This document shows, one piece after another, positions 11,401 to 62,653 of a stretch of DNA of 64,000 nucleotides. The notes below the pieces were generated by a model. It ran no database searches. It saw only the letters and a list, made by a program, of their open reading frames with translations, and was not told the DNA's origin. Origin of the DNA: an uncultured Gammaproteobacteria bacterium (GTDB taxonomy: Bacteria > Patescibacteriota > Patescibacteriia > 2-01-FULL-39-33). Location: NCBI GenBank assembly GCA_964573235.1, contig CAZNIV010000002.1, positions 6,102 to 70,101 of the forward strand. The letters run 5' to 3'. The position numbers and the translations under genes were made by a program. The stretch's first letter is position 1. Every line of letters begins with the position of its first letter.

Positions 11401-14400
11401 ATGGGTTTCTAATTTTAAACAAATACCATATTCATGAAGCTTATCGGCCACAGACTGAGAAACAGCTCCGGTAGGAATCTGAGTGGCATCGGTGGTAGAG
11501 GAAATGTACGCTAGATAGGAAACTAAATTGTGATTTGTAATTGGCGCTAAATCAACCGCAGTCTGAATTAACTCGTCAGTAATATTAGACGCATCGCCAC
11601 ATTGGGCATCTTTATCGCTAGCACCATTATACTGCATTTTAGTACAAGGAGATCCAGACTCTACTCCAGTACTATTAGACTGTTTTAATTTAAAAGTAAC
11701 CAACTGATAACCTGTAGTTTCTGCGCCCTCCCAAGTATAATAAGTCTTAGCATCACTTGGCCCAATCGGTGCATTCTTTTGGCAAATACGCAAATTTGTA
11801 TAATATTCTTTAGATTCACCGCCAGCAACTAATTCATCAAGATTAGTAAATTCATCGCAACCAGCGTAGCTAGCAGAACAATATTTAGCTTTATTGTTAG
11901 CAATAAATTGAGTATAACGAGGGGATGAAAAAGCTGTTTGGCTTTGACGATAAACCTGATAACCATCACACTCCGAAGGACAAGAATCTATAGGCTTAAC
12001 TACTCCCGGAACTTCTGGATCACCATTTTTTGGTTCATAAAGCTTACAACCAACTTCACTTGGAATACAAACACCAGCATAATTCGAGCATTCGCTATTG
12101 CGCTTAATTAAGACATCATCCAACTCACCTTGAGTAGCCGGCCAAGAACCATTTGCACTGGCACTATAACAATTATAATACCAAGGCGCTTTTTTAAGAT
12201 AAGCTATGTCATTAGCCACAATAGTGGAAGGATCATAATCCTGATTAGTGATTGCTAATTTATACCCATCAGTGGTGGTGGTGACTAAACCACTCTGATG
12301 ACCATCGCCAACTCTAATAAACTGACTACAACCAGCCTGATTACTAGCACAAGTTTGAGCATCGCGATCAAAAAATTTGGTATTAGAAGTACTAGTAGTT
12401 ACTCCCAAATTTAAATAAATCTCATAACCACGACTAGTCCATTCCGCTATTTTAGAAGAAGTGGCGACCTTACAAGCAGAACCATTGTAGGGTATTCGAC
12501 ATTCTACTGTACCAATATTACAATCACCCTGCTGATCACATATTTTATTTAATGAATACCCTTGACTAGCCCCAAAATTAGAAGCATTCCATCGATCAAC
12601 ATTCACCTGGACCGAGGCCGTACAACCGCCAGAAATATTACACTTATTCAAAATATTATTAGTATCCGTATTCATCCAAGTAGCCACGCCCGACAAAATG
12701 CCTGTAGTAGTTGCTATGTTGTTATAATAATCACTATACCACTTACAACCAACATTATCAGCTGAACAATTTTGATAATCAAGGGTATTTTTCAAATAAG
12801 AAACGGCCACATCGCTACCTATCTGATAAGTTTGACAGGTATTATAAACTGGCTCGCACTTTGGCGCATCAAACTTCCAAACGCGCTTTTCGTTAGTACA
12901 ATAACCATAGGCTTGGCAACTACCATTAATATCTTCTTTAATACACTGTTGCTCATCACCACAATAATTATCACGACTAACGTTACCGCCCTGACTATTA
13001 GACATATCTGGGCCAAAGCCCTCACGACGACAAAATAGCTCTGGCGCCTTTAAGACCCAATACTGATCAATTAAACCAGAAAATTCCGATCCATCCTCAA
13101 ATTTATTTAATAAGTCACCCAAGGTATATGATTTACCAGTACCACCTTGTTCTACAATATATCTAGCCGCAATCTCCCAACCCACTGGAACAATGCGATA
13201 TTTACGAAGAATAATAATATTACGAAGAGTGAAAGCGGTTTGCGGATTAGTAACCTGATTAACATTTGGGGCAAAAATACGATTCTTAATAGAGTCAGGC
13301 AAATCGAAAAGTTGTTTTTTATCTCTAATCGCCTGAGCAAATTCCTGATCAATCACACAACCATCATAAGATGGGCGAGCTGGATCTATACAGCTTGCTA
13401 AGCGATTTAATAAATCATAAGGACCACCAACAGTAAAGGCTCCTTGTTTTAAATTTTGAAATTTAACTTCTGCATCGGCCTGACCACTAACGGCAGGCGC
13501 AGACTGAGAATTATATAATGGATTAGCGCTATAATTATAACTACGACCATAATCGGCATTTTTACTAAAAAAACCAGAAATTAAAGTCTTCACTAATTCT
13601 GATGTCAAAGTGTTTAAAAATGTTTCCACAAAATCAGCTGCCGTTCCACCAAGATACTGTGGTAAGGTCTGAGCCTTATCTATGCTCTGGCCCCACTGCT
13701 CTTTAATAAAACTTCCAGGGGTTAAGATGTTTTTAGCAACATCAGTAATACTCTTCCATCTACCATCCGTTATTGCGGTTAAAAAAACTTTCTTTTCCGC
13801 CGCCACCTGCCTATCGGCTACGCTGGTTTGAACAGTTAAGATAGAACCGATATCATTTTGATTTGGCTGAAAATATTCATAATAGCCCAAAGAAAAATTA
13901 GCATTATTAATGGCCGTGTCCCAATTTTTAATTGCCGTCGATAAAGAACATCTTGGTTTAGGTGGTTCTTTTACACCCAATATTGGCAAAAGATTCAACT
14001 TAATATTAAAATCTGGTTGACAAATATTAAAACCAGCGGCGCTCATAAATTTATCTACCATTTCACCCAAGGCATTATCAACAGCGTCTTGCATAATTTT
14101 ACTAGCATCTCTAGTATCATATTGTGCCTGCTGACCCTTACCACCAGATGCTACCCACTTGGCTGATTCATAAGCAATGGTTTTGGTTAACATGGATAAA
14201 CCAGACTTAAAAGCGCTCGCTATAGCATTTTTCCAAGCTTCATCTCTTGCTTTTTTTTGCAACTCCTTAGCCCAAACATTCAACTGCTCTTCATTAACCT
14301 CACCAGAGGAGTACATACTATTAGCCTTTAAACACTCCGCCTGAACGTCTAAATTGACCGAGTCCTTAACTACATTATACTTAGTAAGATTAATTAATCC

Positions 14401-14661
14401 CCCCGTACCTAATAGAAAAAAATCAGGGGCAAGATTAGATGTAATTACCCCCTTAGCAGCAGCGCCACCGGTGAGACAAGTCGCATAGGCAGCCGCCGCT
14501 TTTGCCTGTTCTGCTGAAGCTTCGGCTAATGTTATGGTGGATTCAATAGTATCCGCCCCACCATCTGCTCTAACTAGAAGGGAAAAAGAAAAGTTTAAAC
14601 CTAACAATAAAATAAAAATTAAACTTGGCCACCCACGCAAAAACCATTTTTTATTAACCAT
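5461..14661 (-). CDS. Giant secreted/cell-surface protein (3066 aa), very cysteine-rich, Asn/Ser/Thr/Gly-rich, no recognisable catalytic motif
   Basis: N-terminal signal peptide (MVNKKWFLRGWPSLIFILLLGLNFSFSLLVRA), several hundred Cys spaced as in disulfide-rich extracellular modules, single uninterrupted 9.2-kb ORF. Confidence 0.7.
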   Translation of the reverse strand: MVNKKWFLRGWPSLIFILLLGLNFSFSLLVRADGGADTIESTITLAEASAEQAKAAAAYATCLTGGAAAKGVITSNLAPDFFLLGTGGLINLTKYNVVKDSVNLDVQAECLKANSMYSSGEVNEEQLNVWAKELQKKARDEAWKNAIASAFKSGLSMLTKTIAYESAKWVASGGKGQQAQYDTRDASKIMQDAVDNALGEMVDKFMSAAGFNICQPDFNIKLNLLPILGVKEPPKPRCSLSTAIKNWDTAINNANFSLGYYEYFQPNQNDIGSILTVQTSVADRQVAAEKKVFLTAITDGRWKSITDVAKNILTPGSFIKEQWGQSIDKAQTLPQYLGGTAADFVETFLNTLTSELVKTLISGFFSKNADYGRSYNYSANPLYNSQSAPAVSGQADAEVKFQNLKQGAFTVGGPYDLLNRLASCIDPARPSYDGCVIDQEFAQAIRDKKQLFDLPDSIKNRIFAPNVNQVTNPQTAFTLRNIIILRKYRIVPVGWEIAARYIVEQGGTGKSYTLGDLLNKFEDGSEFSGLIDQYWVLKAPELFCRREGFGPDMSNSQGGNVSRDNYCGDEQQCIKEDINGSCQAYGYCTNEKRVWKFDAPKCEPVYNTCQTYQIGSDVAVSYLKNTLDYQNCSADNVGCKWYSDYYNNIATTTGILSGVATWMNTDTNNILNKCNISGGCTASVQVNVDRWNASNFGASQGYSLNKICDQQGDCNIGTVECRIPYNGSACKVATSSKIAEWTSRGYEIYLNLGVTTSTSNTKFFDRDAQTCASNQAGCSQFIRVGDGHQSGLVTTTTDGYKLAITNQDYDPSTIVANDIAYLKKAPWYYNCYSASANGSWPATQGELDDVLIKRNSECSNYAGVCIPSEVGCKLYEPKNGDPEVPGVVKPIDSCPSECDGYQVYRQSQTAFSSPRYTQFIANNKAKYCSASYAGCDEFTNLDELVAGGESKEYYTNLRICQKNAPIGPSDAKTYYTWEGAETTGYQLVTFKLKQSNSTGVESGSPCTKMQYNGASDKDAQCGDASNITDELIQTAVDLAPITNHNLVSYLAYISSTTDATQIPTGAVSQSVADKLHEYGICLKLETHGYNANGVDIAPNADCREFYDSNGDVYYRLLSKVIYVTDDCHPYRRTLTQDPSLTTQCAELNNENVSVTQCDCVSNNGFWSDEKECVYMAVPKMGQSCSASFVGCREYTGNLSNDINFLVNDNFDNSYSNWSGSNSNLSIVSTAVGGFSWFTKATTSKQVYVKRNHTYTLSFWAKGYPGGDNDHASSAGFDLESIKFSSASEQSDYFAKSQLQNISLNVPKVHIGNEWQRYDLGPVFVTFADDGWQDLTINPGATNSIGNDLYIDNITLKEVKGNVYVIENSWFTPNSCDNKLDDPTGTACANGRCNPGEMLGCQAYNNKTDNVDPIYLRSFTSLCRAEAVGCEAMIDTHNSNATSSESFGGTVATADSVSVVKDNLAFIVNDKKFSCLAENKGCSAYGQPVINNRNEVMGYSTVYIKNDPQTYSRSLCRAENLWCGEYATNNTYNYFKDPRQQVCEFKSLTTSSTPAWYRMGEDGLCDTSPYQTIGLGVVSEKLQPDQNMKWAGVCPSSQSSCTEFIDPLTNNYASLLYNGDFSQNLGDINRPDGWEINSIGFNYKKEVTHSFVTGIVSQDVNLIDDRLYSLSMLADGQVAIDVKCSEGSMRSPDGSMVISSDGSSASLNYNLIASSSVSGRLYARDTKNCTLLVGASGSVTDVKLTESGVYYNLSDQMTDSRASCQGMVDYRKGCVLLNDRGAVNYADNPSTRDRSYLIYDADYIENKNVGTSQAIAVNKANDDSSGLKSNVSANAVIKVQPDRQCASWLYCNTFEKGNVNDPNPVLGSSDQCLGLALCSALDGMGNCSLFVNNQNKISVYDKGLDINKTGYSMLGKQIPNASGKSSSTVLGYYPYHLMSQVGEDANIANSDFEYIYNADQPKPIGWKPGVDTAWTIDKFSVATSKTDRKEGIGYLKVNADGTVRSNPISVDGDNAYSFSAWINTSYLYPSPQAKVLISVNGRVIDTVSAGLPWQRISKPLPPEVYQNGGALYVSVQNCFATVGSGQNTKCMTIQQASTTVTTGCLDSNLDGQCDVSGYSLFDLISLKPILEAGKDVNNSNIYISRSCRLYPEGDSQACNYVKNGDMYNGWQGFCMVSDPNNPQICLQWWPVDKIKGDGEPYYFSKSFPLYYCAALEGDMHLVEHREVVLFNYTSKTIKSAWNSAAWYKWLGPPGLIYAGVNTVFFWHPSYTFPKVTALTGNLLDAVLGSPINNFEIEDKNYNPSGTLRQQCRGSGCGECPFGYFYHHDDEIKKAGLFKNGSVKTWDYCKPVLADLVKRDSIYTDANTSGWYEYNGDLQQIKKNDNSYFDEKEKGVQVYLKDVDGGTIMDYNKAVSSNNVGYCKYVEQVVDDAGNSKAWYSRLSAGDNFWLTNPGGVLNVRLLRNDLVPITINSGKYPFGSLVTPQSDYDPYMWDGGKPYTMGMGKGVTFGCDGDNCKRFGLCSISHTNCLAYGVVNSIILSGVQLQLGNSTNTIPRSSIGLGDLGCPTGEECYPFAALSPDTCLDNGTTCKIVATTNSIGESRELLKSIFARSYGEWEYKKIDRENMCVKDEGSDKTATRDSCTWPIVTNKITKWTCVGGFNDGFSSSTAFASTTCLSVNSVSNSCENWKTTTGKGICADFTDFSSLFYGTSSECFGLSQAEANKDCYGAFIDIRDGICMEDPYNPVKNYVCVGGPNDGIGCTTTPSSVLNSLVSCDSNVKCDNGVCDGGKFDGRECLGSTDIEKNNFCLLEYAEVKTVDKNCRYKTDPSGTIFDSGLPCSDSNDCDSSIIISGHCSRTISTACDYKGNSCSNVAGSWYHYGESTDSLNKFVWDLPTLNCVGNVRANDSSYCYIDPVVTSTNITLDGSNKNWAYEKQAVKLGFTVSVDSNQLPIQNYNINWGDSNSSSVSNVSMKDNRANPDAPYLMYHAYDYWKIKAENSKEASTANNIICSGDGQDALAESICGNKTIKPISSNESWCCVKINISVTDNWERTAEQTKGVYVIKQ

Positions 14662-17722: not shown

Positions 17723-18724
17723 TTATTTTTTTATCTTTTTAACTAACTGATATAAATTATACCAAAAAATTCCATAACCTGTCTCATACGCACCAACATA
17801 ATCAGTAAATTTGGCATTTTCCGCAAAGCCCTGTTTAAATCTAGTTACGCCCGGCCACTTAACTTCATCCACGCCCCAAAAATCATAATATTTTTTACCT
17901 TGGGCTTTAGCTTTTAAAATTGTTTGCCATTGCAACAAATAAGGCGCCATTTTTTGGCGATATTCATAATCAGAAGCCCCGTGTAAATACACACACCAAT
18001 CATTTAAATTAATCACCAAATTGGCCGTCACTACTTTATTATCAATTTTGGCCACTACTACTTCTAAAATATTTTTAACGGATAAAACAGCTACCATTTT
18101 TTGATAATATTCTCCGCCATGGGCCATAAATTCATCACGCTCAGCTGTTAATTTAATCAAGCGTAAAAAATCAGCCAAATATTCAGCGCCGGAATGAATA
18201 GTTACGCCACTCTTTTGCGCCACTTTAATATTGTAGCGGGTCTTAGCTTTCATTTGAGATAGAAGCGCCTCTTCGTTTAGCGTCAAATCCAAAATCAAAG
18301 TTTGTTTCGGTTGAATCATATTGATTTTTTTATAACCAAAATCAGTCAACTCTATGGCGTCTATAAACCAAGCCGGATCCAACCGCGTTAAGATAGCTTT
18401 TTCTTTTACTGCCAAAGATTTTAATTCCGCCAAAAAAAATTTTAGCACTTCCTTTTGTTTTTCTATTTCCAACCCCGCCAATAAGATTGGTCCGCGAGGA
18501 ATGTAAAAATAAGTTTTGCCAAAAACCAATGGATTAACTATTGCCTGAGCGACTAATACTATTTTATCTCCGTCCATCACGCCAATTCTAAAAACTTTTC
18601 GCCCTAAAGCGATTTGTAAATCTCCCCATGACGCATTTTGTAACAAACCAAAATCTCCAGCCTGAGTTTTTACAAACTCCTGCCACTGATTAAGCTCAGC
18701 ATCATTAAAATATTTAATCGTCAT
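17723..18724 (-). CDS. FemAB-family peptidoglycan interpeptide-bridge aminoacyltransferase-like protein
   Basis: YLHGASD...APYLLQWQTILKAKAQGKKYYDFWGV region matches the conserved FemAB/GNAT-like C-terminal motif. Confidence 0.6.
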   Translation of the reverse strand: MTIKYFNDAELNQWQEFVKTQAGDFGLLQNASWGDLQIALGRKVFRIGVMDGDKIVLVAQAIVNPLVFGKTYFYIPRGPILLAGLEIEKQKEVLKFFLAELKSLAVKEKAILTRLDPAWFIDAIELTDFGYKKINMIQPKQTLILDLTLNEEALLSQMKAKTRYNIKVAQKSGVTIHSGAEYLADFLRLIKLTAERDEFMAHGGEYYQKMVAVLSVKNILEVVVAKIDNKVVTANLVINLNDWCVYLHGASDYEYRQKMAPYLLQWQTILKAKAQGKKYYDFWGVDEVKWPGVTRFKQGFAENAKFTDYVGAYETGYGIFWYNLYQLVKKIKK

Positions 18725-21700
18725 TAAATTACAAAACTAATCAAACGCCCCGGTACAAAAATAATTTTCTTAATTTCCGCTCCAGCTAAATACTGTTTAA
18801 TCCGCTCATCTTTTTTAGCTGCTACCACCGCCTCTGCTTCAGAGATTTCTACCGGCAATTCTAACTTAGCACGCACCTTACCATTAACTTGAATGGCAAA
18901 TTGAGCCGTTTTCTTGCTTACCTTATTAACATCATAAACTGGCCACTTTTCTTGATTAATACTGGCCTTGTAGCCTAAATTCTGCCACAACTCTTCGGAT
19001 AAATGAGGCGCAAATGGCGACAACATCACCGCCTCTGCTTCAGAGATTTCTACCGGCAATTCTAACTTAGCACGCACCTTACCATTAACTTGAATGGCAA
19101 ATTGAGCCGTTTTCTTGCTTACCTTATTAACATCATAAACTGGCCACTTTTCTTGATTAATACTGGCCTTGTAGCCTAAATTCTGCCACAACTCTTCGGA
19201 TAAATGAGGCGCAAATGGCGACAACATCACCAAAAATTGTTCCGACATGTCTTTGGTAAACGCTTTTACCTCTTGAATGCGATTAACTAAAATCATCATC
19301 GTAGAAATAGCGGTATTAAAACCCATTGTTTCAACATCACTACCCACTTTCATCACGGTTTGATTAAACAAGATTTCTGTTTCTTCATCAACTTGTTCCA
19401 CGATTTTTATTTCACCACTAGTATACACCGCCCAAACTTTTTCTAAAAATCTCTTTAAACCTACCATGCCTTTAGTGCTCCAAGGCTTAGCATCTTCTAA
19501 TGGACCCATGAACATTTCATACAATCTAAAAACATCCGCGCCATATTCACGCAAAATATCATCAGGATTAACCACATTGCCACGCGACTTACTCATCTTC
19601 TCGCCATCTTCACCTAAAATCAAACCTTGATTAACTAATTTTACAAACGGTTCTTCTTGAGGTACATAACCTAAGTCAAATAACACCATGTTCCAGAATC
19701 TGGCATACAATAAATGTAACACCGCATGCTCGGCACCGCCCAAATAAACATCTACCGGCAACCAATATTTTAATTTTTCCGCCGAAGCAAATTCATTCGG
19801 ATTTTTAGAATCAATATAGCGCAACCAATACCAAGAAGATCCGGCCCATTGAGGCATAGTATTGGTTTCGCGCTGGGCCTTGCCACCACAAACTGGGCAT
19901 TTTACTTCTACCCATTCTTTAATGTTCACCAATGGTGATTCACCGGTACCTGATGGTTCATATTTTTCTACCATCGGCAAAGTTAATGGCAATTCGGATT
20001 CTGGTACTGGCACAATACCGGTATTTTTGCTACGCAAAACTAGCTCCAATAATTCTGGGGTAACTGGATTATTAAAATGACCAAAACCATGCCAAACTTT
20101 AAACATCCAACCAGCTGGAATATTCTCATGCGTCTTACGACTAATCCACGGATCATCGTCAGACAAAATAATATTTTTATCCTCCACTAAATTGCTCACT
20201 TTTTCCCAACTAAAATCTGTTTCCCAAATTTTCTTCAATGATTCAACGTCGGAATTTGGCCATTGCTCTTTAAGCCACTGCCAATCGCGCTCGTTACGCT
20301 CACCAATTGCCGAGGCAATCAAATAAACATGGCCGATTTTTTTATTCGCCTGCTCAATTAAATGTAACGCCGCCTTACTACCCAGACTGTGGCCAATAAC
20401 CACATCATTAGCGCCCATTTTTTGCATATAAGGCTCAAGCGCCTTTAACCAATCAGCTAAAACCGGGTGCTCGCTATTTGGCATATCAGGCGCAAATACC
20501 TCATAGCCATTCTTTTCTAATTCCTGCTTTAAATATGGAAACCAGTTATTACTACCATTGCCCTCAAAACCATGAATCAACAACGCTTTTTGTTTTTGTT
20601 TTTTGCAATAATCACAATGAATTAACGGCATCGGTTCACCCCAATAACGCTGGCGAGAAAATACCCAGTCACGCAATTTATAGTTAACTGCCATCTTGCC
20701 TAAGTTATTAGCTTCTAGCCAGGTAATCATTTTTTTGATGGCATCTTTAGGCAATAACCCATTTAAAAAATCAGAATTAACCATTTTACCAGAGTCAATA
20801 TCCGTAAAGGCTTCGTTGGTAATATCGCCACCGCTAATTACCTCAATAATTGGCAAATCAAATTTCTTCGCAAAAGCATAATCGCGTTCATCATGCGCCG
20901 GCACTGCCATAATCGCGCCCGTACCGTAAGTACTCAAAACATAATCCGAAATCCAAATAGGAATCTCGGTATCATTGACCGGATTAATCGCTTTTATACC
21001 CTCAAGTTCTACGCCAGTCTTATCTTTATTTAATTCTGTACGCTCTAAATCAGATTTATTTTTAGCTTCCGTCGCATACCTAGTTACTTCGGCAAAATTA
21101 GTAATTTTATCTTTTAATTTTTGCACTAATTCATGCTCTGGTGATAACACCATATAAGTCGCACCAAACAAAGTATCTGGGCGAGTGGTATAAACCACGA
21201 TATCAGCCAACTCATCACCATCTTGCGCTACTTTAAAAGTCACTTCGGCGCCTTCACTGCGACCAATCCAATTACGTTGCAAGGTTTTGATTGATTCCGG
21301 CCAATTCATTTGCTCTAAACCACTCAATAAGCGATCGGCATAAGCAGTAATGCGTAACATCCATTGGCGCAAGTTCTTTCTTTCTACGACCGTGCCACAA
21401 CGCTCACATTTGCCATTAACCACCTCTTCGTTGGCCAAGCCAGTTTTACAAGATGGGCAGAAATTAATTGGCACAAAAGCTTCATATGCCAAACCTTTTT
21501 TAAATAACTGTAAAAAAATCCATTGCGTCCATTTATAATATTCCGGATCGGTCGTATCTACTTCACGCTCCCAATCATAAGAAAAACCCAAACTCTTAAT
21601 TTGCTTTCTGAAAGTATTAACATTGCTTTGAGTAGTCACACTCGGATGTGTACCAGTTTTAATCGCATAATTTTCTGCTGGTAAACCAAAAGCGTCCCAA

Positions 21701-21936
21701 CCCATCGGATGTAAAACATTAAACCCCTTTAATCTCCAATAACGAGAAAAAATATCGGTCGCTGTATAACCTTCTGGATGACCAACATGCAAACCCATAC
21801 CTGATGGATAAGGAAACATATCCAAAATATATTTCTTGGGTTTGGTGGAAAAATCTTCAGCTTTAAAAGTTTTATTATCTTCCCAGAACTTCTGCCATTT
21901 TGGCTCAATTTCACTAGGGTTATACTTAGCGTTCAT
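18724..21936 (-). CDS. leuS: Leucine--tRNA ligase carrying a ~195-aa YdeN/RBBP9-like serine-hydrolase insertion and a duplicated 67-aa C-terminal segment
   Basis: HVGHPEGY (HIGH) motif, CP1 editing domain, KMSKS, C-terminal domain. Insert runs from about 20020 to 20604; tandem duplication at 18826..19227. Confidence 0.9.
18826..19227. repeat. Perfect tandem duplication, 2 x 201 bp, in frame inside the leuS 3' region
   Basis: Unit 18826-19026 is identical to 19027-19227 in the displayed sequence; the protein shows [67 protein letters not shown] twice. Confidence 0.85.
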
Positions 21937-22022: not shown

Positions 22023-22051
22023 TTGACAATTTAGCCAAATTAAACTAAGAT
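22023..22051 (+). promoter_or_regulatory. Sigma70-type promoter for island A gene 1 (TTGACA-17-TAAGAT)
   Basis: -35 at 22023-22028, 17-nt spacer, -10 at 22046-22051. Confidence 0.5.
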
Positions 22052-22110
22052 ATTCCTCACGTACATTACAGCGAATTAACGCCAACCAACCGGAAAGGAT
22101 ACATGAGTGT

Positions 22111-22491
22111 ATGTGTAAAAACGCACTTTTGTTTCTCTTTTCCCTGATTCTGATTTTTTCGTGGTTTTCTGCGGTAATTGCGACAAAAGTGATTCCGAGC
22201 CAATCCGGCACTGTCACTTTCGTTCAATCCAGCGACCACGAGCTGAAATTTACCCCGTATTTTCCCAAATCGGAGCGTGACCCTCAACCGTCACTCGCCG
22301 TTTTGCCAGAAGAACCGGTAAAAATCAACAAAATCAGACACCTTCCACCAAGCAAAATCGCGTACAAAGCGAAAACTTGGGCGGATGAAAACAGGGAAAT
22401 TCCAGGGTTTTTGACTCTGCCGGGCCCGGCACGCAACAAAGATCCGTGTTGCCAAGAGGCACGGAAACTTGTAGTCTCGACACGGACCTAG
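22111..22491 (+). CDS. Island A gene 1: secreted 126-aa protein of unknown function (GC-rich, foreign codon usage)
   Basis: Signal-peptide-like N-terminus MCKNALLFLFSLILIFSWFSAVIA; GGAAAGGA SD at 22092-22099; CTG/CCG/GCG-rich codons unlike flanking host genes; terminator follows. Confidence 0.5.
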   Translation: MCKNALLFLFSLILIFSWFSAVIATKVIPSQSGTVTFVQSSDHELKFTPYFPKSERDPQPSLAVLPEEPVKINKIRHLPPSKIAYKAKTWADENREIPGFLTLPGPARNKDPCCQEARKLVVSTRT

Positions 22492-22520
22492 CAGAGAAAA
22501 ACAAGAGTCTGTGCCTCTCC

Positions 22521-22546
22521 AGCGCCATAACATGGCGCTTTTTTAT
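22521..22546 (+). terminator. Intrinsic terminator after island A gene 1
   Basis: 8-bp stem agcgccat/atggcgct with 3-nt loop, followed by TTTTTTATTT. Confidence 0.6.
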
Positions 22547-22591
22547 TTGTCTAAATTTAAACAATTTAATTGATTTTAAAACCAAAATATA

Positions 22592-22620
22592 TTGACAACA
22601 TAACTTTTATGTGGTATAAT
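22592..22620 (+). promoter_or_regulatory. Perfect-consensus sigma70 promoter for island A gene 2 (TTGACA-17-TATAAT)
   Basis: -35 at 22592-22597, -10 at 22615-22620. Confidence 0.65.
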
Positions 22621-22663
22621 ACAGAAGTCGTACATTTAACCGCAACCTCAACTGGAGGATCTC

Positions 22664-22768
22664 ATGAAAGACCTCGTCTTTGTGCTGGCCGTCGGAGTGA
22701 TCTTCGTTTTCATCAAAATCATGAAAGTGCTCCTTGGTGAAAACAAGCAGGCGAAAAAACCCGCTTGA
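22664..22768 (+). CDS. Island A gene 2: 34-aa hydrophobic single-helix peptide MKDLVFVLAVGVIFVFIKIMKVLLGENKQAKKPA (type-I-toxin-like or small membrane peptide)
   Basis: GGAGGA SD at 22654-22659, 4 nt before the ATG; GC-rich codons; sits between the consensus promoter and the terminator. Confidence 0.55.
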   Translation: MKDLVFVLAVGVIFVFIKIMKVLLGENKQAKKPA

Positions 22769-22794
22769 ACACCTCAACCGCCACCACAACCAAA

Positions 22795-22823
22795 AGGCCC
22801 CCGCTGATCACGGAGGCCTTTTA
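22795..22823 (+). terminator. Intrinsic terminator after island A gene 2
   Basis: ggcccccg / cggaggcc stem with palindromic loop tgatca, then a T-run. Confidence 0.6.
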
Positions 22824-22867
22824 ACTTTTATCCTATTTTATAATGTAATATATAAAATTTAGCAAAA

Positions 22868-23266
22868 CTATTTAACAATATAACTACATTTATTCTCGCT
22901 GCAAATAGCACTCAACTTATCCGATGCATCATCTAAATAATATTGGCACACACCACACGCGATACCATTTTCACATTTCTTTCTCTCTAAAGAATCCCAA
23001 TAAGTAACATACTTTTTATTTATTACCTCCAGACAACCACAGCACTCTTTAGAATCAGCGAATGCGCAATCTTCCTTAGTAACACAAGAAAGCAACTCTT
23101 CGCGATCTTTTGGTATCAAATAACCCACGGGCACTTTAGATGAATCTATTTGCTTGCCAGTCATTTGAGTGGGGATACCATTATTTATTATTAAAAAATA
23201 AGTAATCACACCGACTAAAACAATAATAATAGCGCTCAAAATTAAAACTAAACTTTTTTGCTTCAT
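22868..23266 (-). CDS. Small membrane-anchored cysteine-rich protein (host)
   Basis: 132 aa; N-terminal TM (LVLILSAIIIVLVGVITYFLII) then about 10 Cys; AT-rich codons. Confidence 0.5.
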   Translation of the reverse strand: MKQKSLVLILSAIIIVLVGVITYFLIINNGIPTQMTGKQIDSSKVPVGYLIPKDREELLSCVTKEDCAFADSKECCGCLEVINKKYVTYWDSLERKKCENGIACGVCQYYLDDASDKLSAICSENKCSYIVK

Positions 23267-23334: not shown

Positions 23335-26187
23335 CTACTTTATACTCAATAATTTCTTTAAATACTGACCGGTATAACTATCCTTAACTTTCGCCACATC
23401 CATTGGTGTACCCGAAGCTACTAACTTACCACCAGCCACGCCACCTTCGGGACCTAAATCAATAATCCAATCCGCCGCCTTAATCACATCTAAATTATGT
23501 TCGATCACTAAAATTGAATTACCTTTATCCACCAAGCGATGTAACACTTGCAACAAACGACTAATATCATCAAAATGTAAACCGGTCGTTGGCTCATCCA
23601 AAATATATAAGGTCTTACCTGTTGGACGACGAGATAACTCGGTCGCCAACTTAACTCTTTGCGCTTCACCACCAGATAAAGTAGTCGCACTTTGGCCTAA
23701 ACGCAAGTAACCCAAGCCCACCTCTTCTAAAATCGATAATTTATCAATTACCTGAGGCTCATCAGCAAAAAACTTCTTCGCTTCCGCCACCGACATATCC
23801 AAAACATCGGCAATATTTTTATCTTTATAATGAATTTCTAAGGCATCCTGATTATAGCGCTTGCCATGACATGCTTCACACTCGACAAATACATCAGGCA
23901 AAAATTGCATTTCAATTTTTACATAACCATCGCCGGAACAATTTTCACAACGGCCACCACCTTTAACATTAAAGCTAAAATGACCTTGTTTAAAACCACG
24001 CATTTTACTTTCTGGTAACTCAGCATACAAATCACGAATGTAAGTGAATACACCAGTATAAGTGGCAGGATTAGAGCGAGGAGTGCGACCAATTGGCGAC
24101 TGATCAATGTCAATTACCTTGTCTAAATTTTCTAAACCACGCACTTCTTTATGTTTGCCTGGCAAATCACGAGTACGATAAAACCTATTAGACAAAACTT
24201 TAGTTAAAATTTCACTCATTAAGGTAGATTTACCAGAGCCAGAAACGCCCGTGACGCAAACCAATTTACCTAACGGAATTTTAACATCAATATTCTTTAA
24301 ATTATGTTCCGTGGCACCAATAATTTCAATGTTTTTACCATTACCTTGGCGATAAGACTTGGGCAAAGGAATACATTTTTTGCCGGATAAATATTGACCA
24401 GTTAAAGATTTTTTATCATTTTTTACTTCTTCAAAAGTGCCTTCAGAAACTACTTCGCCACCTAAGCTGCCCGCCCCTGGGCCAATATCAATTACATGAT
24501 CAGCTGATTGCATCATTTGTTCATCGTGCTCTACCACAATTACCGAATTGCCCTTATCTCGCAAGCGTTTTAACGCTTCAATTAACTTAGCAGTATCGCG
24601 CGCATGCAAGCCGATTGAAGGTTCATCAAGCACATAAGTAACTGATTCCAAACCGGAACCAATTTGCGTGGCTAATCTAATTCTTTGCGATTCACCACCG
24701 GCTAAAGTATTAGCACTGCGAGACAAAGTTAAATAATTCAAACCGACTTGTTGTAAAAAGATTAAACGCTTATCTACTTCTTTAATAATTTGTTTAGCAA
24801 TCTTGCCTTCACGCGATTCGCTCTTCCACTTTCTAGATAATTCATCAAATAATTTAGCCAAACTATCAATATCCAAATCAGTCATATCAGCAATCGACAA
24901 ATTATTGATTTTAATCGCCAAACTTTCTGGACGCAATTTGCGACCTTGGCAAGTGGGACAGGTAGAAACACGCATGTATTCCTCAAGAGTTTTCTGCATG
25001 TATTCACTCTTGGCTTCTAAATATTTTTCATTCAAAAATTCAATCACGCCCGGAAATTTTACCGTTGTACCTTCAACCACATATTCTTCTTGACCAGTAC
25101 CTTTCATAATCAATTCAAAAACTTTGTCGGATAATTCCGCCACCGGCACATTCAAACTAAATTTATATTTTTTCGCCACCACCTCTAACAACTTCATGTT
25201 GCTATTTTGAGAAGAAAAATTTCTGGACCAAGGCTTAATCGCGCCTTCGGCTAAAGTTAAACGCTTATTGGGAATAATTAATTCCGGATCCGGAATTAAA
25301 CGCGTACCTAAACCACGGCAAGCCGGACAAGCGCCAAAAGAAGAATTAAAAGAAAAAGAATGCGGTTCAATCTCCGGCAAGCTTATGCCACAATTGCGAC
25401 AAACATAATATAAATTAAAATTATGTTCTTGATTAGTTTCTGGCAAAAAGATATTAATAAATCCGTTACCAAAATCCAATGCTAAGTTAATCGTTTTTTC
25501 TAAGCGTTGCCAATTAACATCTTCTACTTTTTTGGCTTTAGTTTCTGAAGTCAGCGTAACAGTATCCACTAAAATTTCAATAGTATGACTAATATTTTTA
25601 TCAATCTCTAATTTTTTTGCTTCCGTAATATTATAAAAATTGCCATCGATGCGTAACAGTTCGTAATTAGCTTTATCGATCGCTTCAATTTGTTTAGTGT
25701 GAGAACCTTTTTTATTCATGACTACTGGCGCCAAGATTTGCATTTTCACGCCTTCCTTCCAGGTAGTAATCGTATCTAAAATTTGCTTTGGAGTTTGACG
25801 CTCTACTTTTTGCCCACATTTATGACAAAATACTTCGCCGATGCGCGCATAAAGCAAGCGCAAATAATCATAAATTTCTGTGACTGTACCCACAGTAGAG
25901 CGTGGATTAACCGAAGATGATTTTTGATCAATGGCAATGGTTGGCGATAAACCATCGATACTATCGACATCTGGCTTATCCATCAAATCTAAAAATTGCT
26001 TAGCATAAGAAGATAAGCTTTCGGCGTAGCGTCTTTGCCCTTCAGCATACAGCGTATCAAAAGCTAACGAAGACTTGCCAGAACCAGACAAACCAGTGAT
26101 AACCACCAATTTATTTTTGGGGATTTCTAGCGAAACATTTTTTAAATTATTAACTCGCGCACCCTTGATCGTGATCTTATCGGTCAT
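23335..26187 (-). CDS. uvrA: Excinuclease ABC subunit A
   Basis: Two ABC ATPase modules ([14 protein letters not shown]; [10 protein letters not shown]), zinc-finger Cys clusters, 950 aa. Confidence 0.95.
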
Positions 26188-26369: not shown

Positions 26370-26930
26370 TTATCTGGATTTAACGAGCAATTCTCCGGCT
26401 TTGATGGGTGGGTCTTCTTTGAGCCCTGCATCATGCCGAAAACGCCCATAAATATCAGTGACTTTGGCATCAGTGATATCACTCTGCCCACAACGCTGAC
26501 AGCGACTACTGGCATTTGCTAAATTAATAGCCATTTGCCAATAGCGCTCTTTACTTGCCTCCTCTTGTGCCGTTACCGCCCAAACCTTTTGGCGATTATA
26601 AACAACACAAGCAACAACCACGGCCAACATCATAGCGGTAAACGTCATGCCCACTAAGTGACGATGATGTCGCACCCAGCGCTTGGCTAACACCCAAGTG
26701 ACAACCGTCGGGTAAGCCACCATCAGAGTTAAGACTACCGGCCAAGCCAATAAGTCTTTAAACCGAATCAACGACTGGTTGCACTGAAGCTTTTTTTCGT
26801 TTTGCCGATGATTGCCCCAGCATTTTTGCATGTAATCCAGCTGAGTCGCGCTAACAATATGGTTATCTACGCGATCAGTTGGCACTGTGTCACTGCTCCA
26901 CGGGACAAAGGGGTGACAGATTTTCATCAT
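26370..26930 (-). CDS. Island B: 186-aa protein with two TM helices and a Cys/His-containing C-terminal domain, unknown function
   Basis: AAGGAGGA SD at 26945..26938, 7 nt before the ATG; GC-rich E. coli-like codons; TM segments WPVVLTLMVAYPTVVTWVL and LVGMTFTAMMLAVVVACVV. Confidence 0.55.
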   Translation of the reverse strand: MMKICHPFVPWSSDTVPTDRVDNHIVSATQLDYMQKCWGNHRQNEKKLQCNQSLIRFKDLLAWPVVLTLMVAYPTVVTWVLAKRWVRHHRHLVGMTFTAMMLAVVVACVVYNRQKVWAVTAQEEASKERYWQMAINLANASSRCQRCGQSDITDAKVTDIYGRFRHDAGLKEDPPIKAGELLVKSR

Positions 26931-27022: not shown

Positions 27023-27051
27023 AGTATTTCATATTTTACCACTTTTGTCAA
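27023..27051 (-). promoter_or_regulatory. Promoter for island B gene (TTGACA-17-AATACT), -35 overlapping the divergent truD -35
   Basis: Minus-strand TTGACA at 27051..27046; -10 at 27028..27023. Confidence 0.4.
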
Positions 27052-27073
27052 CCCAACTCAAATTTGATATAAT
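27045..27073 (+). promoter_or_regulatory. truD promoter TTGTCA-17-TATAAT; the transcript would be essentially leaderless
   Basis: -10 ends at 27073 and the ATG is at 27083; there is no SD. Confidence 0.45.
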
Positions 27074-27082
27074 AAATATATT

Positions 27083-28462
27083 ATGGAAGATTTTTTAACT
27101 ATCTTAGCGAAACAAAAAAGTTTTTTAGATAAACTGCAAAAAGAGCAGCCGTCTTTATTTACTATTGAACAAATTTTAGATGAAGAAACAACTTTAAAAA
27201 ATATTGGCATCACCACCTTAAGCAATAATCGCCCTGATGGCTATATTAAATTATATCCCCAAGATTTTATTGTGGAAGAGGTTCGTCAAAATGGCACTAT
27301 TAGTGTCATTGAACCAAAAGATGATTTTCCCCTGGCACAAGACGGCAAAAAAACTTTATATTGCAATTTAGTTAAAGCTAATGTTTCTACTATTGATGCC
27401 ATTGCTCGGTTAGCCAAAGCACTTAATCTGGCGCCAGAAAAAATTGGCTATGCTGGTATTAAAGATAATCAAGCTATTACTAGCCAACTAATCGCCTTAC
27501 CTAATATTAACGCTGGTCAAATCACCAGACTAAAAACGGAAAGCTTTTTTTTAACCAACTTTTATTATGGCACCGGCTCACTAAATGTGGCTGATTTAAC
27601 TGGTAATTCATTTACTATTCTAGTGCGTACCAAAGAAAAAATTGATCAGGAGCATTTAAAGCGGGAATTCAAAAAAATAAAAGATAACGGCTTTTTAAAT
27701 TTTTACCAAACTCAACGCTTTGGCACTCCGCGCTTAATTGGCCACCACTTAGGTAAAATGATTTTGCAAGGCAACTATGAGCACGCCATTAAAGCTTTTT
27801 TACTTTACTCCAGTATTCATGATTTAAAATTAGTGCGCATGATTCGCACCGAAGCGCAACAACTTTACGGTTATTGGGATAAAATGAAAAAAGTTTTTGC
27901 TTCTATGCCTGTTACTTTTCAACATGAACTAAAAATCTTATCTCACCTAGAGCAACACCCCCAAGATTTTATTGGTGCTTTACACGCCGTAAAAGATCAA
28001 AGCACTTTATGGATTTATGCTTACCCCAGTTATTTATTTAATTTATTACTTTCCGAGAATCAAAATAATTTACCACCAGAACTGCCTTTACTATTAAATG
28101 ACAATGAAAAAGATATAGCCTTATATCAAAATTATTTAACGCGTGATGGTATTACTAATTTTGCTAAAGCATTAAAACCATTTAAGTTCATTCAGCTTAA
28201 GCGTCGTTTAACGCCAACCCGTGTATATCCTAAAAATATTATGTTTATGTCGACGGATGAGGGTGTGATTTGTCATTTTGATTTGGATAAAGGTTCTTAC
28301 GCTACTTCATTTTTGATGAACTTATTTAAATTATCTAACGGGTTACCTTATCCGGCTTGGACTAAAAAAACACCTTGTGATATTAAAAAATATCTACAAT
28401 TAGGCACTAATGCCGAGGTAGTTAAGAGATTGGGTGATTATATAAAAAGAGAGCAAGTTTAA
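27083..28462 (+). CDS. truD: tRNA pseudouridine(13) synthase TruD-family protein
   Basis: GYAGIKDNQAITSQ and FGTPRLIGHH motifs typical of TruD/Pus7; 459 aa. Confidence 0.7.
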   Translation: MEDFLTILAKQKSFLDKLQKEQPSLFTIEQILDEETTLKNIGITTLSNNRPDGYIKLYPQDFIVEEVRQNGTISVIEPKDDFPLAQDGKKTLYCNLVKANVSTIDAIARLAKALNLAPEKIGYAGIKDNQAITSQLIALPNINAGQITRLKTESFFLTNFYYGTGSLNVADLTGNSFTILVRTKEKIDQEHLKREFKKIKDNGFLNFYQTQRFGTPRLIGHHLGKMILQGNYEHAIKAFLLYSSIHDLKLVRMIRTEAQQLYGYWDKMKKVFASMPVTFQHELKILSHLEQHPQDFIGALHAVKDQSTLWIYAYPSYLFNLLLSENQNNLPPELPLLLNDNEKDIALYQNYLTRDGITNFAKALKPFKFIQLKRRLTPTRVYPKNIMFMSTDEGVICHFDLDKGSYATSFLMNLFKLSNGLPYPAWTKKTPCDIKKYLQLGTNAEVVKRLGDYIKREQV

Positions 28463-28550: not shown

Positions 28551-29135
28551 TTATTTGACGCAGGAGAAATGAACACTGCCCGCGGTGTCCATGGAGATAC
28601 CCATGTGGTTGATCTCCTCCAACTTGTAGCAATCAGCCGTCCGGGAATGGGACGGGTTAATGGTGATCGAGCGATCCGGGTTGTCGAAAACATGGACAAA
28701 CTCGAACACTCGCTCCATGATCGCCTGGATGGCAACTTCCGCCTCCTTGCTCAGCTGAACGGGTTCACCGTCAGCAAAGTTCAGATACAGAAAGCTCATG
28801 TGATCTCCGGCCTTCTTGATGATGTTGGTGCCAATCAGGTTGAACCCGATCGCCTTCATCTCGGCCATAATGCGATCGAACGAAATCATCGTCCAACCCG
28901 TGGGCCCCCAACCAGTGCGGGGCTTGCCGGAATCAGCCTGGCGATTGCCGGCCGCGTCCGTGCGATTGCCACGGAACGCATCCTTGCCAAGCTGCTCGGC
29001 CTGAAACGCGTGATTCTCGATGATCTCGCGCTGTTTGGCCTGACTCAGCACGGCCTTGGCGATACCACCAACCTTGCGAAGCTCTTCAGCGGCGGAGTCG
29101 GCAATACGGACACGAATCAGAATTTTGGTAACCAT
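28551..29135 (-). CDS. Island C gene 1 (194 aa), unknown function
   Basis: AGGAGA SD; its own consensus promoter; strongly GC3-biased codons (ctg, cgt, gcc, ggc, atc, aag). The overlapping plus-strand 225-aa ORF is rejected. Confidence 0.65.
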   Translation of the reverse strand: MVTKILIRVRIADSAAEELRKVGGIAKAVLSQAKQREIIENHAFQAEQLGKDAFRGNRTDAAGNRQADSGKPRTGWGPTGWTMISFDRIMAEMKAIGFNLIGTNIIKKAGDHMSFLYLNFADGEPVQLSKEAEVAIQAIMERVFEFVHVFDNPDRSITINPSHSRTADCYKLEEINHMGISMDTAGSVHFSCVK

Positions 29136-29334: not shown

Positions 29335-29820
29335 TTAGCCTCGATGACTCAGAACAATCTGGCCATCGATAACGTGCATATCCAAGTAAGCACGCTTTTT
29401 GACCGGGCAATCCAAGCGATTGCTCGAGCCAGTTAAACGCAACACGGTTAGTTCGGGCTGTTCCTTGACGGCAAACACCTCAGCCAGGTGGCGATATTCC
29501 ACTAATTGCCGACGCAATACATAACCCACCATCTCGGGAATGCCACTGCTTTTCTCTTCGCTTATATCCACGGCCAGCCAAAGACTTTTGCCATCGGCTC
29601 CCTTCCAGAACCAAAAAGTCTGGAGTTTTAGGTTACAACTATTAAGGGCGCTGATAGCTTCCCCAATAAAGATATTTTTCCGTCCGCCCATCTCCCAACC
29701 CTTGACCAAAACGCGGGTCTGAGTGGGAATGGGATTGACCGATTGTGGCACCAGACCAGAATCCAGCAACTTTCTTGCCAAGTCTGGTAACAGACACACT
29801 CTGATTTGAATTGTTTGCAT
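29335..29820 (-). CDS. Island C gene 2 (161 aa), unknown function
   Basis: AAGGAG SD 6 nt before the ATG; GC-rich codons; no dedicated promoter, sits downstream of an attenuator hairpin. Confidence 0.6.
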   Translation of the reverse strand: MQTIQIRVCLLPDLARKLLDSGLVPQSVNPIPTQTRVLVKGWEMGGRKNIFIGEAISALNSCNLKLQTFWFWKGADGKSLWLAVDISEEKSSGIPEMVGYVLRRQLVEYRHLAEVFAVKEQPELTVLRLTGSSNRLDCPVKKRAYLDMHVIDGQIVLSHRG

Positions 29821-29888: not shown

Positions 29889-30395
29889 CTAGCGACAGAT
29901 TATCTCCAACAGACCAGATGTATCGTCGCGACTGACCACAAAGGTGAACAAGTGGCCATCAAACTTGTGATCGGGAATGGGATTAGCCGCCTTGATTTGC
30001 ATTACCATGTCCGGATTTTCCGAATCATTCGCATTGCTAAAGGCGATAACACTTTCAAACACATGATCATTCAGCCAGTTGCGAATGAACTCCATCTGCA
30101 GGGGGCGTTTCGAGTTGCGACGAGTGAACTCCAACCGCAGATAACGCCGATGCGCTTCTTCGGTTAGTCCCACTTCGGTCAAGCGAAGCGCAACCGAGTC
30201 AACATCTTCCAGTAACCCCGCCAAACTGACACCATGGACGGTGTTCTTGGCGCCATTGATGCCGTGCTGGGTACCGACGAGACGCATCTTCGCCTTGTCG
30301 ACCGTAATGCCAATCTCTTGACAGCGATCATGCGCCGCCAAAGTAAGACCAACAAAGATAGTCAACACCTCTTCCTGCTCTCTTCTCTTTGGCAT
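29889..30395 (-). CDS. Island C gene 3 (168 aa), unknown function
   Basis: AAAGGGAGGAA SD 7 nt before the ATG; GC-rich codons. Confidence 0.6.
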   Translation of the reverse strand: MPKRREQEEVLTIFVGLTLAAHDRCQEIGITVDKAKMRLVGTQHGINGAKNTVHGVSLAGLLEDVDSVALRLTEVGLTEEAHRRYLRLEFTRRNSKRPLQMEFIRNWLNDHVFESVIAFSNANDSENPDMVMQIKAANPIPDHKFDGHLFTFVVSRDDTSGLLEIICR

Positions 30396-45848: not shown

Positions 45849-45873
45849 AAAAGCTGAGCACATGGCCCAGCTG
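45841..45873 (-). terminator. Weak hairpin plus T-run downstream of island D gene
   Basis: agctg...cagct stem and the ccagctgg palindrome; TTTTTTATTTTA on the minus strand. Confidence 0.3.
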
Positions 45874-45913
45874 GTTGCTTGTTAATCGTTAGTCTCGTTA
45901 GTCGTGATGGCGA

Positions 45914-46201
45914 TCAGATATGGACCGCTACGGAGCGACCGTGAAGATGCTCCTCGCGCTTCTTGAACTCTTTGGCACACTTGTCATTGCAAACATGGCC
46001 GATATGCACGTCGATTGACCGCACCGGAATGCGGTAATGACCATGCGGATCCTTGTCGCTCAGCGGATTCAAGCACAGCAGACACTGTTCGGGGATCTCG
46101 ACCTGCGGCCGGTGATGCTCAGCCGAAATTTCCGGCGGAATCATCGTCGCAACATCGTCACCTTGAACACCCGCACCGCCCGTCCCTGTTGATCCTCCCA
46201 T
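45914..46201 (-). CDS. Island D: 95-aa Gly-rich N-terminus plus Cys/His-rich putative zinc-ribbon protein, unknown function
   Basis: AGGAGG SD 7 nt before the ATG; CxxC...HxH...HIGHVCNDKC pattern; GC-rich codons. Confidence 0.55.
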   Translation of the reverse strand: MGGSTGTGGAGVQGDDVATMIPPEISAEHHRPQVEIPEQCLLCLNPLSDKDPHGHYRIPVRSIDVHIGHVCNDKCAKEFKKREEHLHGRSVAVHI

Positions 46202-46285
46202 GGCTGTTCCTCCTCTTGCTTGGTTGGTTTAGGCACTACTCACACAAATTTTAAAAATAAAAGAACGATTTTACACGGTCTTCTG

Positions 46286-46314
46286 ATTATAGGATAAAAT
46301 CGCCTTTATGTCAA
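46286..46314 (-). promoter_or_regulatory. Perfect-consensus promoter TTGACA-17-TATAAT for island D, abutting the rsmE stop codon
   Basis: -35 at 46314..46309 sits directly next to the rsmE TAG at 46315-46317. Confidence 0.65.
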
Positions 46315-62349: not shown

Positions 62350-62559
62350 CTATCGGTTCAAATGGGTTTTGATCGGCGCTGACTCGTGCTTCTTCTGAAT
62401 GTTCTTGTCTAAGCCGTAATATTCAGAAGCCAAAATCATACAAATAGTTACTATCACCACTGCCGGCAAAGCCAAGAACTGAAACCAAAGCTCAAACCTG
62501 GTCATTTTGCTGGTGTTTTTCATCCAACCAACCCTTGCTCTCCTGAAAAAAGTACACAT
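62350..62559 (-). CDS. Island G: 69-aa small single-TM membrane protein, unknown function
   Basis: GGGGGAGGA SD 7 nt before ATG 62559 (MCTFFRRARVGWMKNTS...); TM FLALPAVVIVTICMILA; codons more GC-rich than host. Confidence 0.5.
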   Translation of the reverse strand: MCTFFRRARVGWMKNTSKMTRFELWFQFLALPAVVIVTICMILASEYYGLDKNIQKKHESAPIKTHLNR

Positions 62560-62624
62560 AAAAGAATCCTCCCCCACTTACCGTTTTGTTTAGCACTATA
62601 AAGAACACAACTTAATGACTAAAA

Positions 62625-62653
62625 AATATATCATATTTTAGCGATATTGTCAA
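62625..62653 (-). promoter_or_regulatory. Promoter TTGACA-17-TATATT for island G
   Basis: Read directly from the sequence. Confidence 0.5.

Follow-up and report, generated by a model that had tools for sequence, protein, structure and literature searches.

A 34-residue putative membrane peptide encoded by a cassette-like gene between leuS and uvrA of an uncultured bacterium

A stretch of 64,000 nucleotides (nt) of contig CAZNIV010000002.1 from an uncultured bacterium (assembly GCA_964573235.1; positions 6,102 to 70,101 of the forward strand), hereafter referred to as the window, was analysed with a focus on the 1.4-kb gap between leuS and uvrA, which contains three small open reading frames (ORFs). 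One of them, encoding a peptide of 34 amino acids (aa), had been read in a preliminary description as the gene of a type-I-toxin-like product. From its sequence signals, we conclude that this small gene is probably genuine and that its product is a peptide spanning the membrane once, and the reading as a type I toxin is not supported. In a fuller form, which is considered moderately probable, this genuine gene would be strongly and probably constitutively expressed, would constitute an acquired cassette resembling the morons of phages, and its product would serve as an accessory membrane modulator or protective factor.

Expression signals and reading frame of the peptide gene

The perfect TTGACA-17-TATAAT promoter that had been announced for this locus was confirmed (22592-22620, plus strand). 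It is of the sigma-70 type, matches the consensus at 12 of 12 positions around a 17-nt spacer and carries an extended -10 element, with TG at 22612-22613 and TGTGG as the -16 region at the end of the spacer. This perfect pattern appeared three times in the 64 kb, against 0.05 expected from shuffled sequences. In the local 3.5 kb, promoter-like sites matching at least 9 of 12 positions numbered 11, compared with 10.1 in shuffles, i.e. without any excess, and thus the informative promoter evidence is the perfect match only. The Shine-Dalgarno (SD) sequence GGAGGA, said to lie 4 nt ahead of the start codon, was also found there (22654-22659 before the ATG at 22664).

The joint occurrence of promoter, SD, ORF and hairpin goes well past what chance would give, and the combination of this SD with a hydrophobic product proved to be exceptional. 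In a six-frame count of the ATG-initiated ORFs of 20-70 aa (476 in total), an SD was present in 4 and a 19-residue window with a hydropathy of at least 2.5 in 14, and the peptide ORF alone presented both. Its G+C content (GC) at the three codon positions (GC1/GC2/GC3) was 0.54/0.20/0.63, with T at position 2 in most codons, which is the pattern expected of a hydrophobic protein encoded in a GC3-rich gene. Moreover, a table of codon log-odds derived from the remaining GC-rich ORFs of the window gave the 34-aa frame a score of +12.4 bits, the highest value of the six frames, versus -36.6 and -10.0 bits for the competing plus frames and +8.7, -19.9 and -52.1 bits for the minus frames. The codon usage of the compositionally foreign genes of the window (the island class described below) fitted the 34-aa frame better than core usage by 23 bits.

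The product had been described as a hydrophobic peptide with one transmembrane (TM) helix and a Lys-rich tail, and this description was supported by hydropathy and by structure prediction. The hydrophobic segment spans residues 4-24, with K18 and K21 near its C-terminal end, the maximum 19-residue hydropathy is 2.64, and the best 15-residue window holds 13 hydrophobic residues. The tail (residues 25-34, GENKQAKKPA) carries E26, K28, K31 and K32, with a charge of +2. AlphaFold2, run without an alignment, returned a single helix over residues 2-31 with a predicted local distance difference test score (pLDDT) of 84. According to the positive-inside rule, the peptide is probably oriented with its N-terminus out and its C-terminus in.

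Downstream of the ORF, the hairpin terminator of the preliminary description was verified by folding, with energies of -15.6 kcal/mol on the plus strand and -23.4 kcal/mol on the minus strand, and a scan for consensus terminators did not list this hairpin (22796-22818). Its arms are GGCCCCCG (22796-22803) and CGGAGGCC (22811-22818), separated by the loop ctgatca and followed by TTTT at 22819-22822; on the plus strand the stem has one C.A mismatch, and the A-tract is able to pair with the T-tract. The suggestion that the hairpin could serve either strand stood as far as the two-strand structure is concerned, and its supposed link to an antisense RNA was not supported: the hairpin is explained more simply, on sequence grounds, as the putative shared terminator of the peptide gene and of the convergent 132-aa gene, whose stop lies 99 nt from the peptide ORF. 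The same layout could be read in a different way, namely that the promoter fires toward the 132-aa gene and tunes it by read-through antisense transcription or interference, the peptide being a by-product. The convergent arrangement, the 99 nt between both ORFs and the weaker terminator on the plus strand (-15.6 kcal/mol with the mismatch versus -23.4 kcal/mol on the minus strand) agree with such a cis-regulatory role, which would however leave the optimal SD, the codon bias and the TM-grade ORF unexplained; moreover, such convergence with a neighbour is not seen at the other cassettes of this class, and this alternative is regarded as very improbable.

The putative transcript of about 200 nt folded better than its shuffles (z = -3.3), with much of the energy coming from the terminator, and in its minimum free energy fold the C/A-rich tract ACCTCAACCGCCACCACAAC of the 3' untranslated region (UTR) pairs with codons 7-13. 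A non-coding small RNA (sRNA) of about 200 nt with a fortuitous ORF was weighed on account of this folding. It would also suit the GC of the peptide ORF, 46% compared with 38.6% for the window, since RNA genes often stand out as GC-rich islands where the genome is AT-rich, and the absence of a protein homologue together with the disagreement of gene callers on the 34-aa ORF. On the other hand, Rfam at E = 1 gave only sub-threshold noise driven by the terminator, which also accounts for much of the folding energy. The period-3 composition (T at position 2, GC3 of 0.63) and the six-frame codon test favour the SD-led frame, the ORF occupies the interval from SD to terminator, and the coincidence of SD and TM segment is unique in the window. 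Hence a non-coding sRNA is held to be a quite improbable reading of the locus. The coordinates of these and the remaining features are collected in Table 1.

Table 1. Features of the peptide locus, its neighbours and the island-class ORFs (positions in the window)
Feature	Position	Strand	Basis or content
leuS	18724-21936	-	Pfam
Island A gene 1 cassette	22023-22539	+	Promoter 22023-51 (10/12), 126-aa ORF 22111-22491, strong terminator 22521-39
-35 element TTGACA	22592-22597	+	Read directly from the sequence
-10 element TATAAT	22615-22620	+	Read directly from the sequence
Putative 5' UTR, about 37 nt	22627-22663	+	Transcription start at about 22627, deduced from the -10 position
CGTACAT in the peptide leader	22629-35	+	Read from the sequence
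C/A-rich tract AACCGCAACCTCAAC in the peptide 5' UTR	22638-52	+	Sequence
SD GGAGGA	22654-22659	+	4 nt (tctc) ahead of the ATG at 22664
Peptide ORF, 34 codons and TGA (22766-68), product MKDLVFVLAVGVIFVFIKIMKVLLGENKQAKKPA	22664-22768	+	SD-led
C/A-rich tract ACCTCAACCGCCACCACAAC in the 3' UTR, direct repeat of the 5' UTR tract AACCGCAACCTCAAC	22771-22790	+	Repeat analysis
Bidirectional intrinsic terminator: A4, 8-bp GC stem, 7-nt loop, return stem, T4	22792-22822	Both	Sequence and folding
Convergent 132-aa ORF: N-terminal TM segment, Cys-rich domain, core-type composition, without SD	22868-23266	-	ORF list, composition
uvrA	23335-26187	-	Family scan
Island ORFs	22111-22491, 22664-22768 (peptide), 53561-54343	+	SD-led
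Island ORFs	26370-26930, 28551-29135, 29335-29820, 29889-30395	-	SD-led
Island ORFs	45914-46201, 49202-50155, 50308-51273, 62350-62559	-	SD-led

Proposed role of the peptide and readings weighed against it

Taken together, the locus would be a self-contained monocistronic gene of about 200 nt. In this scheme, the consensus sigma-70 promoter with its extended -10 would start the transcript near 22627, the strong SD at optimal spacing would drive translation of the 34-residue peptide, and the hairpin common with the convergent gene would end the transcript. The peptide would then be inserted in the cytoplasmic membrane as one alpha-helix, with its short N-terminus outside and the Lys-rich tail (K18, K21, K28, K31 and K32) in the cytoplasm. 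The expression signals, read from the sequence, are maximal and apparently unregulated. Most likely, the product is an accessory small membrane protein that is made abundantly and more or less constitutively and that would bind or modulate another membrane component; known regulators among the small membrane proteins act in this manner, and a parallel exists in phage morons whose small products in the inner membrane keep incoming phage out. It is not regarded as a suicide toxin restrained by an antisense RNA. Furthermore, the foreign composition and the cassette signals suggest that the gene probably arrived by horizontal transfer or, failing that, is expressed under a regime of its own.

Several observations weigh against this reading, and the lack of comparative evidence is the main weakness of any functional claim for the peptide. 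A phmmer search of 1.84 billion representative proteins found no homologue except for one spurious match, a word-indexed set of 5.8 billion sequences gave no match to a padded 40-aa query, scans for the back-translated pattern in GTDB genomes, in IMG/VR and in metagenomes of JGI recovered the identical contig only, and tblastn against phage and plasmid records found nothing. The contigs that carry the locus belong to one population (including the metagenome-assembled genome GCA_037133135.1), for which the sample identifiers suggest a boreal-lake origin, being 99.8-100% identical in the aligned regions and identical across the island; since these contigs are nearly identical and a homologue was not found, purifying selection, the ratio of non-synonymous to synonymous substitutions (dN/dS) and covariation are beyond reach. 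Public gene calls on the identical contigs present, in another frame, a 43-aa ORF (22609-22740) that starts within the promoter; the 34-aa peptide was absent from these calls, and an exact-sequence look-up returned no record. In addition, a partner protein could not be identified, and the analogy with morons comes without a phage context, as the neighbours are leuS and uvrA and there was no PHROG or phage match. Lastly, unrecognised control of the peptide by a trans-acting RNA or protein may exist, and high expression of a very hydrophobic peptide can be harmful.

As regards the conflicting gene call, the composition of the 43-aa frame (GC1/GC2/GC3 of 0.57/0.57/0.18) favours the 34-aa frame over it, which makes the locus an example of a gene caller choosing the wrong frame. 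The sole phmmer match (P0002, a metagenomic protein of 146 aa, E = 1.8e-4) was judged no evidence of homology but a coincidence, probably inflated by repeats, since what produces the score is a set of four copies of IFIGEHKQVKKPA in tandem that resemble just the tail LLGENKQAKKPA of the peptide. A scan with the N-terminus of the leucyl-tRNA synthetase (LeuRS) gave genomes that were only 55-66% identical and spread over many phyla, without any close relative.

The reading as a toxin was assessed against published features of the class. Type I toxins have been searched for as proteins of <70 aa with a TM segment, a polar C-terminus and at least 10 hydrophobic residues in a 15-residue window, encoded at loci that are separated from the flanking genes by no less than 400 nt on the upstream side and 250 nt on the downstream side and/or are tandemly duplicated (PMC2887945). 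The generic part of the likeness stood, as the peptide has 34 aa and a single TM helix, with charges both at its N-terminus (MKD) and in its tail, and its gene lies in a compositionally foreign island. However, the spacing differs: the ORF is 172 nt from the stop of the preceding gene (Island A gene 1) and 99 nt from that of the 132-aa ORF, which is below the published isolation spacing and too short for a separate antitoxin gene. Moreover, the gene is single copy, no second copy being found in the window or in the GTDB, IMG/VR and JGI collections searched.

The proposed affinity with Hok/Fst/TisB-like toxins did not survive the family searches, in which neither Pfam nor NCBIfam at E values up to 10 returned a toxin family (Hok/Gef, TisB, Ibs, Ldr or others), the only Pfam match of the peptide being DUF7789, below its cutoff. 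The Trp and PxxxG signatures of Fst/Ldr are absent as well. No match was found either in PDB, PADLOC or PHROGs.

A type I toxin-antitoxin locus of the par/Fst or txpA/RatA layout would need a convergent RNA that overlaps the 3' end and neutralises the peptide mRNA. This RNA would be either a short sRNA with its start near 22870 or else the 3' end of the mRNA of the 132-aa gene. The bidirectional terminator with its convergent unit, as in par (PMC7472228), points in this direction. Nevertheless, a scan of the minus strand with the sigma-70 consensus at a threshold of at least 9 of 12 positions, which weak or non-sigma-70 promoters may escape, found no antisense promoter overlapping the peptide ORF. 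Two weak promoter-like sites of that strand (22905-22877 and 22865-22835, each matching 9 of 12 positions) lie beyond the terminator, inside or beside a protein gene. A hypothetical sRNA starting from them would share with the peptide mRNA the terminator alone, and its 5' part has no complementarity to the 5' end of this mRNA, the duplex energy of -6.6 kcal/mol being no better than the shuffle mean of -7.8. Direct repeats of the DRa/DRb type linking the region beyond the terminator (22826-22872) to the translation start (22627-22700) were not found. The complement of the peptide 3' UTR does pair with the 5' UTR beside the SD more stably than shuffles (-27.3 vs. -17.4 ± 3.2 kcal/mol), which favours the antitoxin arrangement yet would be relevant only with read-through of the -23 kcal/mol terminator.

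Occlusion of the translation start was also considered as a hallmark of toxin mRNAs. In 99% of the folding ensemble, the SD core of the peptide mRNA pairs with one of two flanking CCUC motifs, and this sequestration is real; however, SD pairing among the other island genes ranges from 0.02 to 0.98, and the candidate hallmark was rejected as undistinctive. Known toxin mRNAs are typically expressed at low, gated levels, and a perfect promoter joined to a perfect SD would be the opposite of such restraint. In view of the whole evidence, and with the generic architecture on one side and the missing family match and par-like repeats on the other, the type I reading is regarded as improbable; none of the features that would tell such a toxin from an ordinary small membrane protein was detected.

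A protective peptide, conferring phage superinfection exclusion or immunity to a membrane-active agent and perhaps paired with the gene-1 product, is a functional sub-case of the accessory membrane factor proposed here, with the same anatomy, and was weighed separately. The product of the prototype moron is a small exclusion protein of the inner membrane, strong constitutive expression would suit an always-on factor of a moron-like cassette, and the adjoining gene 1 encodes a predicted N-terminal hydrophobic helix and has a paralogous promoter and leader. Against it, PADLOC and PHROGs gave no match and no phage or plasmid relative was found, a strong terminator divides the peptide gene and gene 1 into separate transcription units, and recognisable bacteriocin or phage genes were not found nearby. 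The preliminary alternatives of a holin-like or bacteriocin-immunity peptide fared no better, without any PHROG, Pfam or PADLOC match and without adjoining lysis or bacteriocin genes; the neighbour scans saw no endolysin, bacteriocin or recognisable phage gene near the peptide. This specific protective role is considered unlikely.

Two gene classes in the window and the surroundings of the locus

The division of the genes around the peptide gene into two classes was the more surprising observation, beyond the single locus. A core class of 37 ORFs has a GC3 of 0.23-0.44 and a GGAG-type motif within the 20 nt before the start in none of the 37. By family scans, it includes leuS, uvrA, rsmA (ksgA), truD, a femAB-like gene, rsmE and genes for RNase J, a P-type ATPase and subunits of an oxoacid:ferredoxin oxidoreductase, as well as recA, which was assigned from its N-terminal sequence and not by family scan. 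In contrast, an island class of about 11 ORFs presents AAGGAGG, AGGAGG or GGAGG 4-10 nt before the start, with a GC3 of 0.49-0.71 (computed for ten ORFs); the peptide ORF, at 0.63, falls in this range and outside that of the core class. All three perfect promoters of the window, plus two of 11/12, drive island ORFs, CAACC occurs in 6 of 9 island leaders vs. 2 of 37 core leaders, and at least six island ORFs, the peptide gene included, form complete cassettes, each having a promoter and a terminator of its own. Several ORFs of the class show near-consensus promoters, and common motifs recur in many of the leaders, namely CGTACAT near +3 and a CAACC-type C/A tract ahead of the SD.

Pfam gave no match for any of the ten island ORFs scanned (all but the 69-aa ORF at 62350-62559), and PADLOC and PHROGs gave no significant match for the nine that were scanned. 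Neither were relatives of the tested island ORFs found in IMG/VR or phage records, nor paralogy among island proteins, including the peptide versus the other small TM ORF. The peptide gene belongs to this class of self-contained, compositionally foreign cassettes, which is moron-like by analogy. That it is one unit of a chromosome-wide moron-like accessory set outside a phage, which relies on SD-based initiation unlike the core genes, is a more tentative proposal and rather doubtful at present; if true, membrane or secreted factors that were acquired might be translated preferentially and at a high level under this distinct initiation regime.

Other members of both classes showed features of their own. 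A second small-membrane-protein cassette (62350-62653, minus strand) has an 11/12 promoter with TG (62653-62625), the SD GGGGGAGGA and a hairpin terminator, and lies upstream of a 922-aa gene; its 69-aa ORF encodes one TM segment and a K/Q-rich tail, and BLASTP found no similarity between it and the 34-aa peptide. A further cassette at 45850-46314 (minus strand) has a GC of 57% and combines a perfect promoter and the SD AGGAGG with a hairpin terminator; it has no family match and encodes a Cys/His-rich product of 95 aa (CxxC ... HxC ... C) that is zinc-ribbon-like. For the truD-like gene, an 11/12 promoter (27045-27085, plus strand) has a -10 element that ends 9 nt before the ATG, which implies that its mRNA may be leaderless or nearly so, consistent with SD-free core genes. 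An ORF of 3066 aa and core composition was found at 5461-14661 (minus strand), and the ORFs of 1005 and 356 aa downstream of it had no Pfam match.

The flanking leuS, uvrA and 132-aa genes have a GC of 34-39% and a GC3 of 0.30-0.36, and the wider neighbours of the peptide gene are leuS, a femAB-like gene, uvrA and truD. Both the 132-aa ORF and gene 1 are orphans, without any homologue in the searches. Gene 1 and the peptide gene share several elements: both leaders carry CGTACATT exactly 8 nt past the -10 element, both promoters have TATTGACAA at -35, and a CAACC C/A-rich tract precedes the SD in both leaders. The AlphaFold2 model of the gene-1 product shows an N-terminal helix (residues 3-27) followed by a coil-like remainder of low confidence, and this hydrophobic helix is a candidate signal peptide or anchor. 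The gene-1 transcript folds unusually well (z = -5.8), with a long hairpin that spans the stop codon, and had no Rfam match; gene 1 may code for a protein, for a structured RNA or for both.

The boundaries of the cassette were also inspected. At least seven contigs, assembled independently and coming from several samples, start or stop in the AT-rich 70-nt spacer at 22502-22574, between the gene-1 terminator and the peptide promoter (contig loci L002-L004, L006-L009 and L011), which could be population variation at the cassette boundary or contig-end noise. The junction of L004, with 43 unrelated nt upstream of 22568, was rejected as a sign of cassette mobility, as unalignable contig ends of 18-43 nt are common in these assemblies. 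A target-site duplication or attachment-site (att)-like repeats around the peptide cassette were rejected as well, the 10-nt TAACTTTTAT and a 23-nt repeat of 74% identity being within chance (p = 0.16). At most other cassettes the flanking repeats were likewise no better than chance, and the route of insertion is not indicated by repeats. Concerning the flanking LeuRS, it has an inserted alpha/beta-hydrolase domain (Abhydrolase_1 / Ser_hydrolase, Pfam), and it comprises 1070 aa in the window versus 1003 aa on the contig of L001/L005, owing to about 67 residues near the C-terminus that are exactly duplicated in tandem, which could be a true variant or an assembly artefact.

Comparison with known systems

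One of the closest known layouts was that of the Fst/Ldr toxins. Their signature is a Trp after the TM helix together with a P/D/S/T-xxx-G(C) motif, and the par locus of pAD1 combines convergent promoters, a bidirectional terminator and DRa/DRb repeats that make the sRNA complementary to the toxin start (PMC7472228). The peptide resembles these toxins in having about 33-34 residues and one TM helix that is preceded by a pair of charged residues (K, D) at the N-terminus and followed by a charged tail, and its mRNA resembles that of par in its length (about 200-230 nt), its bidirectional intrinsic terminator, its convergent transcript and a local stem-loop able to sequester the SD. In contrast, there is no detectable sequence similarity to Fst/Ldr, there is no Trp, and the P/D/S/T-xxx-G motif is missing, as the residue four before G11 is Val. 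Furthermore, the convergent partner is a 132-aa protein gene and not a short sRNA with a strong promoter, DRa/DRb repeats are absent, the promoter and SD are maximal instead of restrained, and no close relative of the host was found among the Bacillota or Enterobacteria.

A local resemblance of the peptide to Fst (MKDL..., IFV, M20) was examined and found unsupported by BLASTP or by phmmer against PDB. The BLASTP comparison with what we take to be the Fst sequence gave no alignment to the peptide. For the discovery of type I toxins, the case indicates that the architecture of a peptide plus a bidirectional terminator is insufficient for a toxin call.

A second comparison is with small regulators of membrane proteins. 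In size and form the peptide is like MgrB, AcrZ, CydX and KdpF, with <50 aa, a single TM helix and short tails. That class is often missed by annotation and works by binding larger membrane proteins. These regulators are, however, conserved in their lineages and usually encoded in or next to the operon of their partner, or controlled by a known regulator, whereas the peptide is an orphan without an identifiable partner or regulator. Small single-TM proteins such as MgrB and CydX commonly act as modulators of membrane proteins (PMC12648545). Considered alone, the peptide locus is of modest interest, being one more small membrane protein without annotation, from a bacterium that is poorly sampled.

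Finally, the gene was compared with the morons of phages, which carry a promoter and a terminator of their own and a deviating GC, and the prototype of which is HK97 gp15, a small protein of the inner membrane (PMC3594210). The peptide gene is like HK97 gene 15 in its own promoter and terminator, in a GC unlike that of its neighbours and in its small membrane product. Unlike phage morons, it lies between leuS and uvrA and not in a recognisable phage or prophage, and it has no relative in the phage collections; moreover, about 11 such units are scattered over the 64 kb of chromosome and are SD-led, unlike the core genes. If this two-class pattern were genome-wide, it would provide a natural system for the expression of foreign genes in a host that normally initiates without SD pairing, as well as a test of whether moron-type cassettes exist outside phages.

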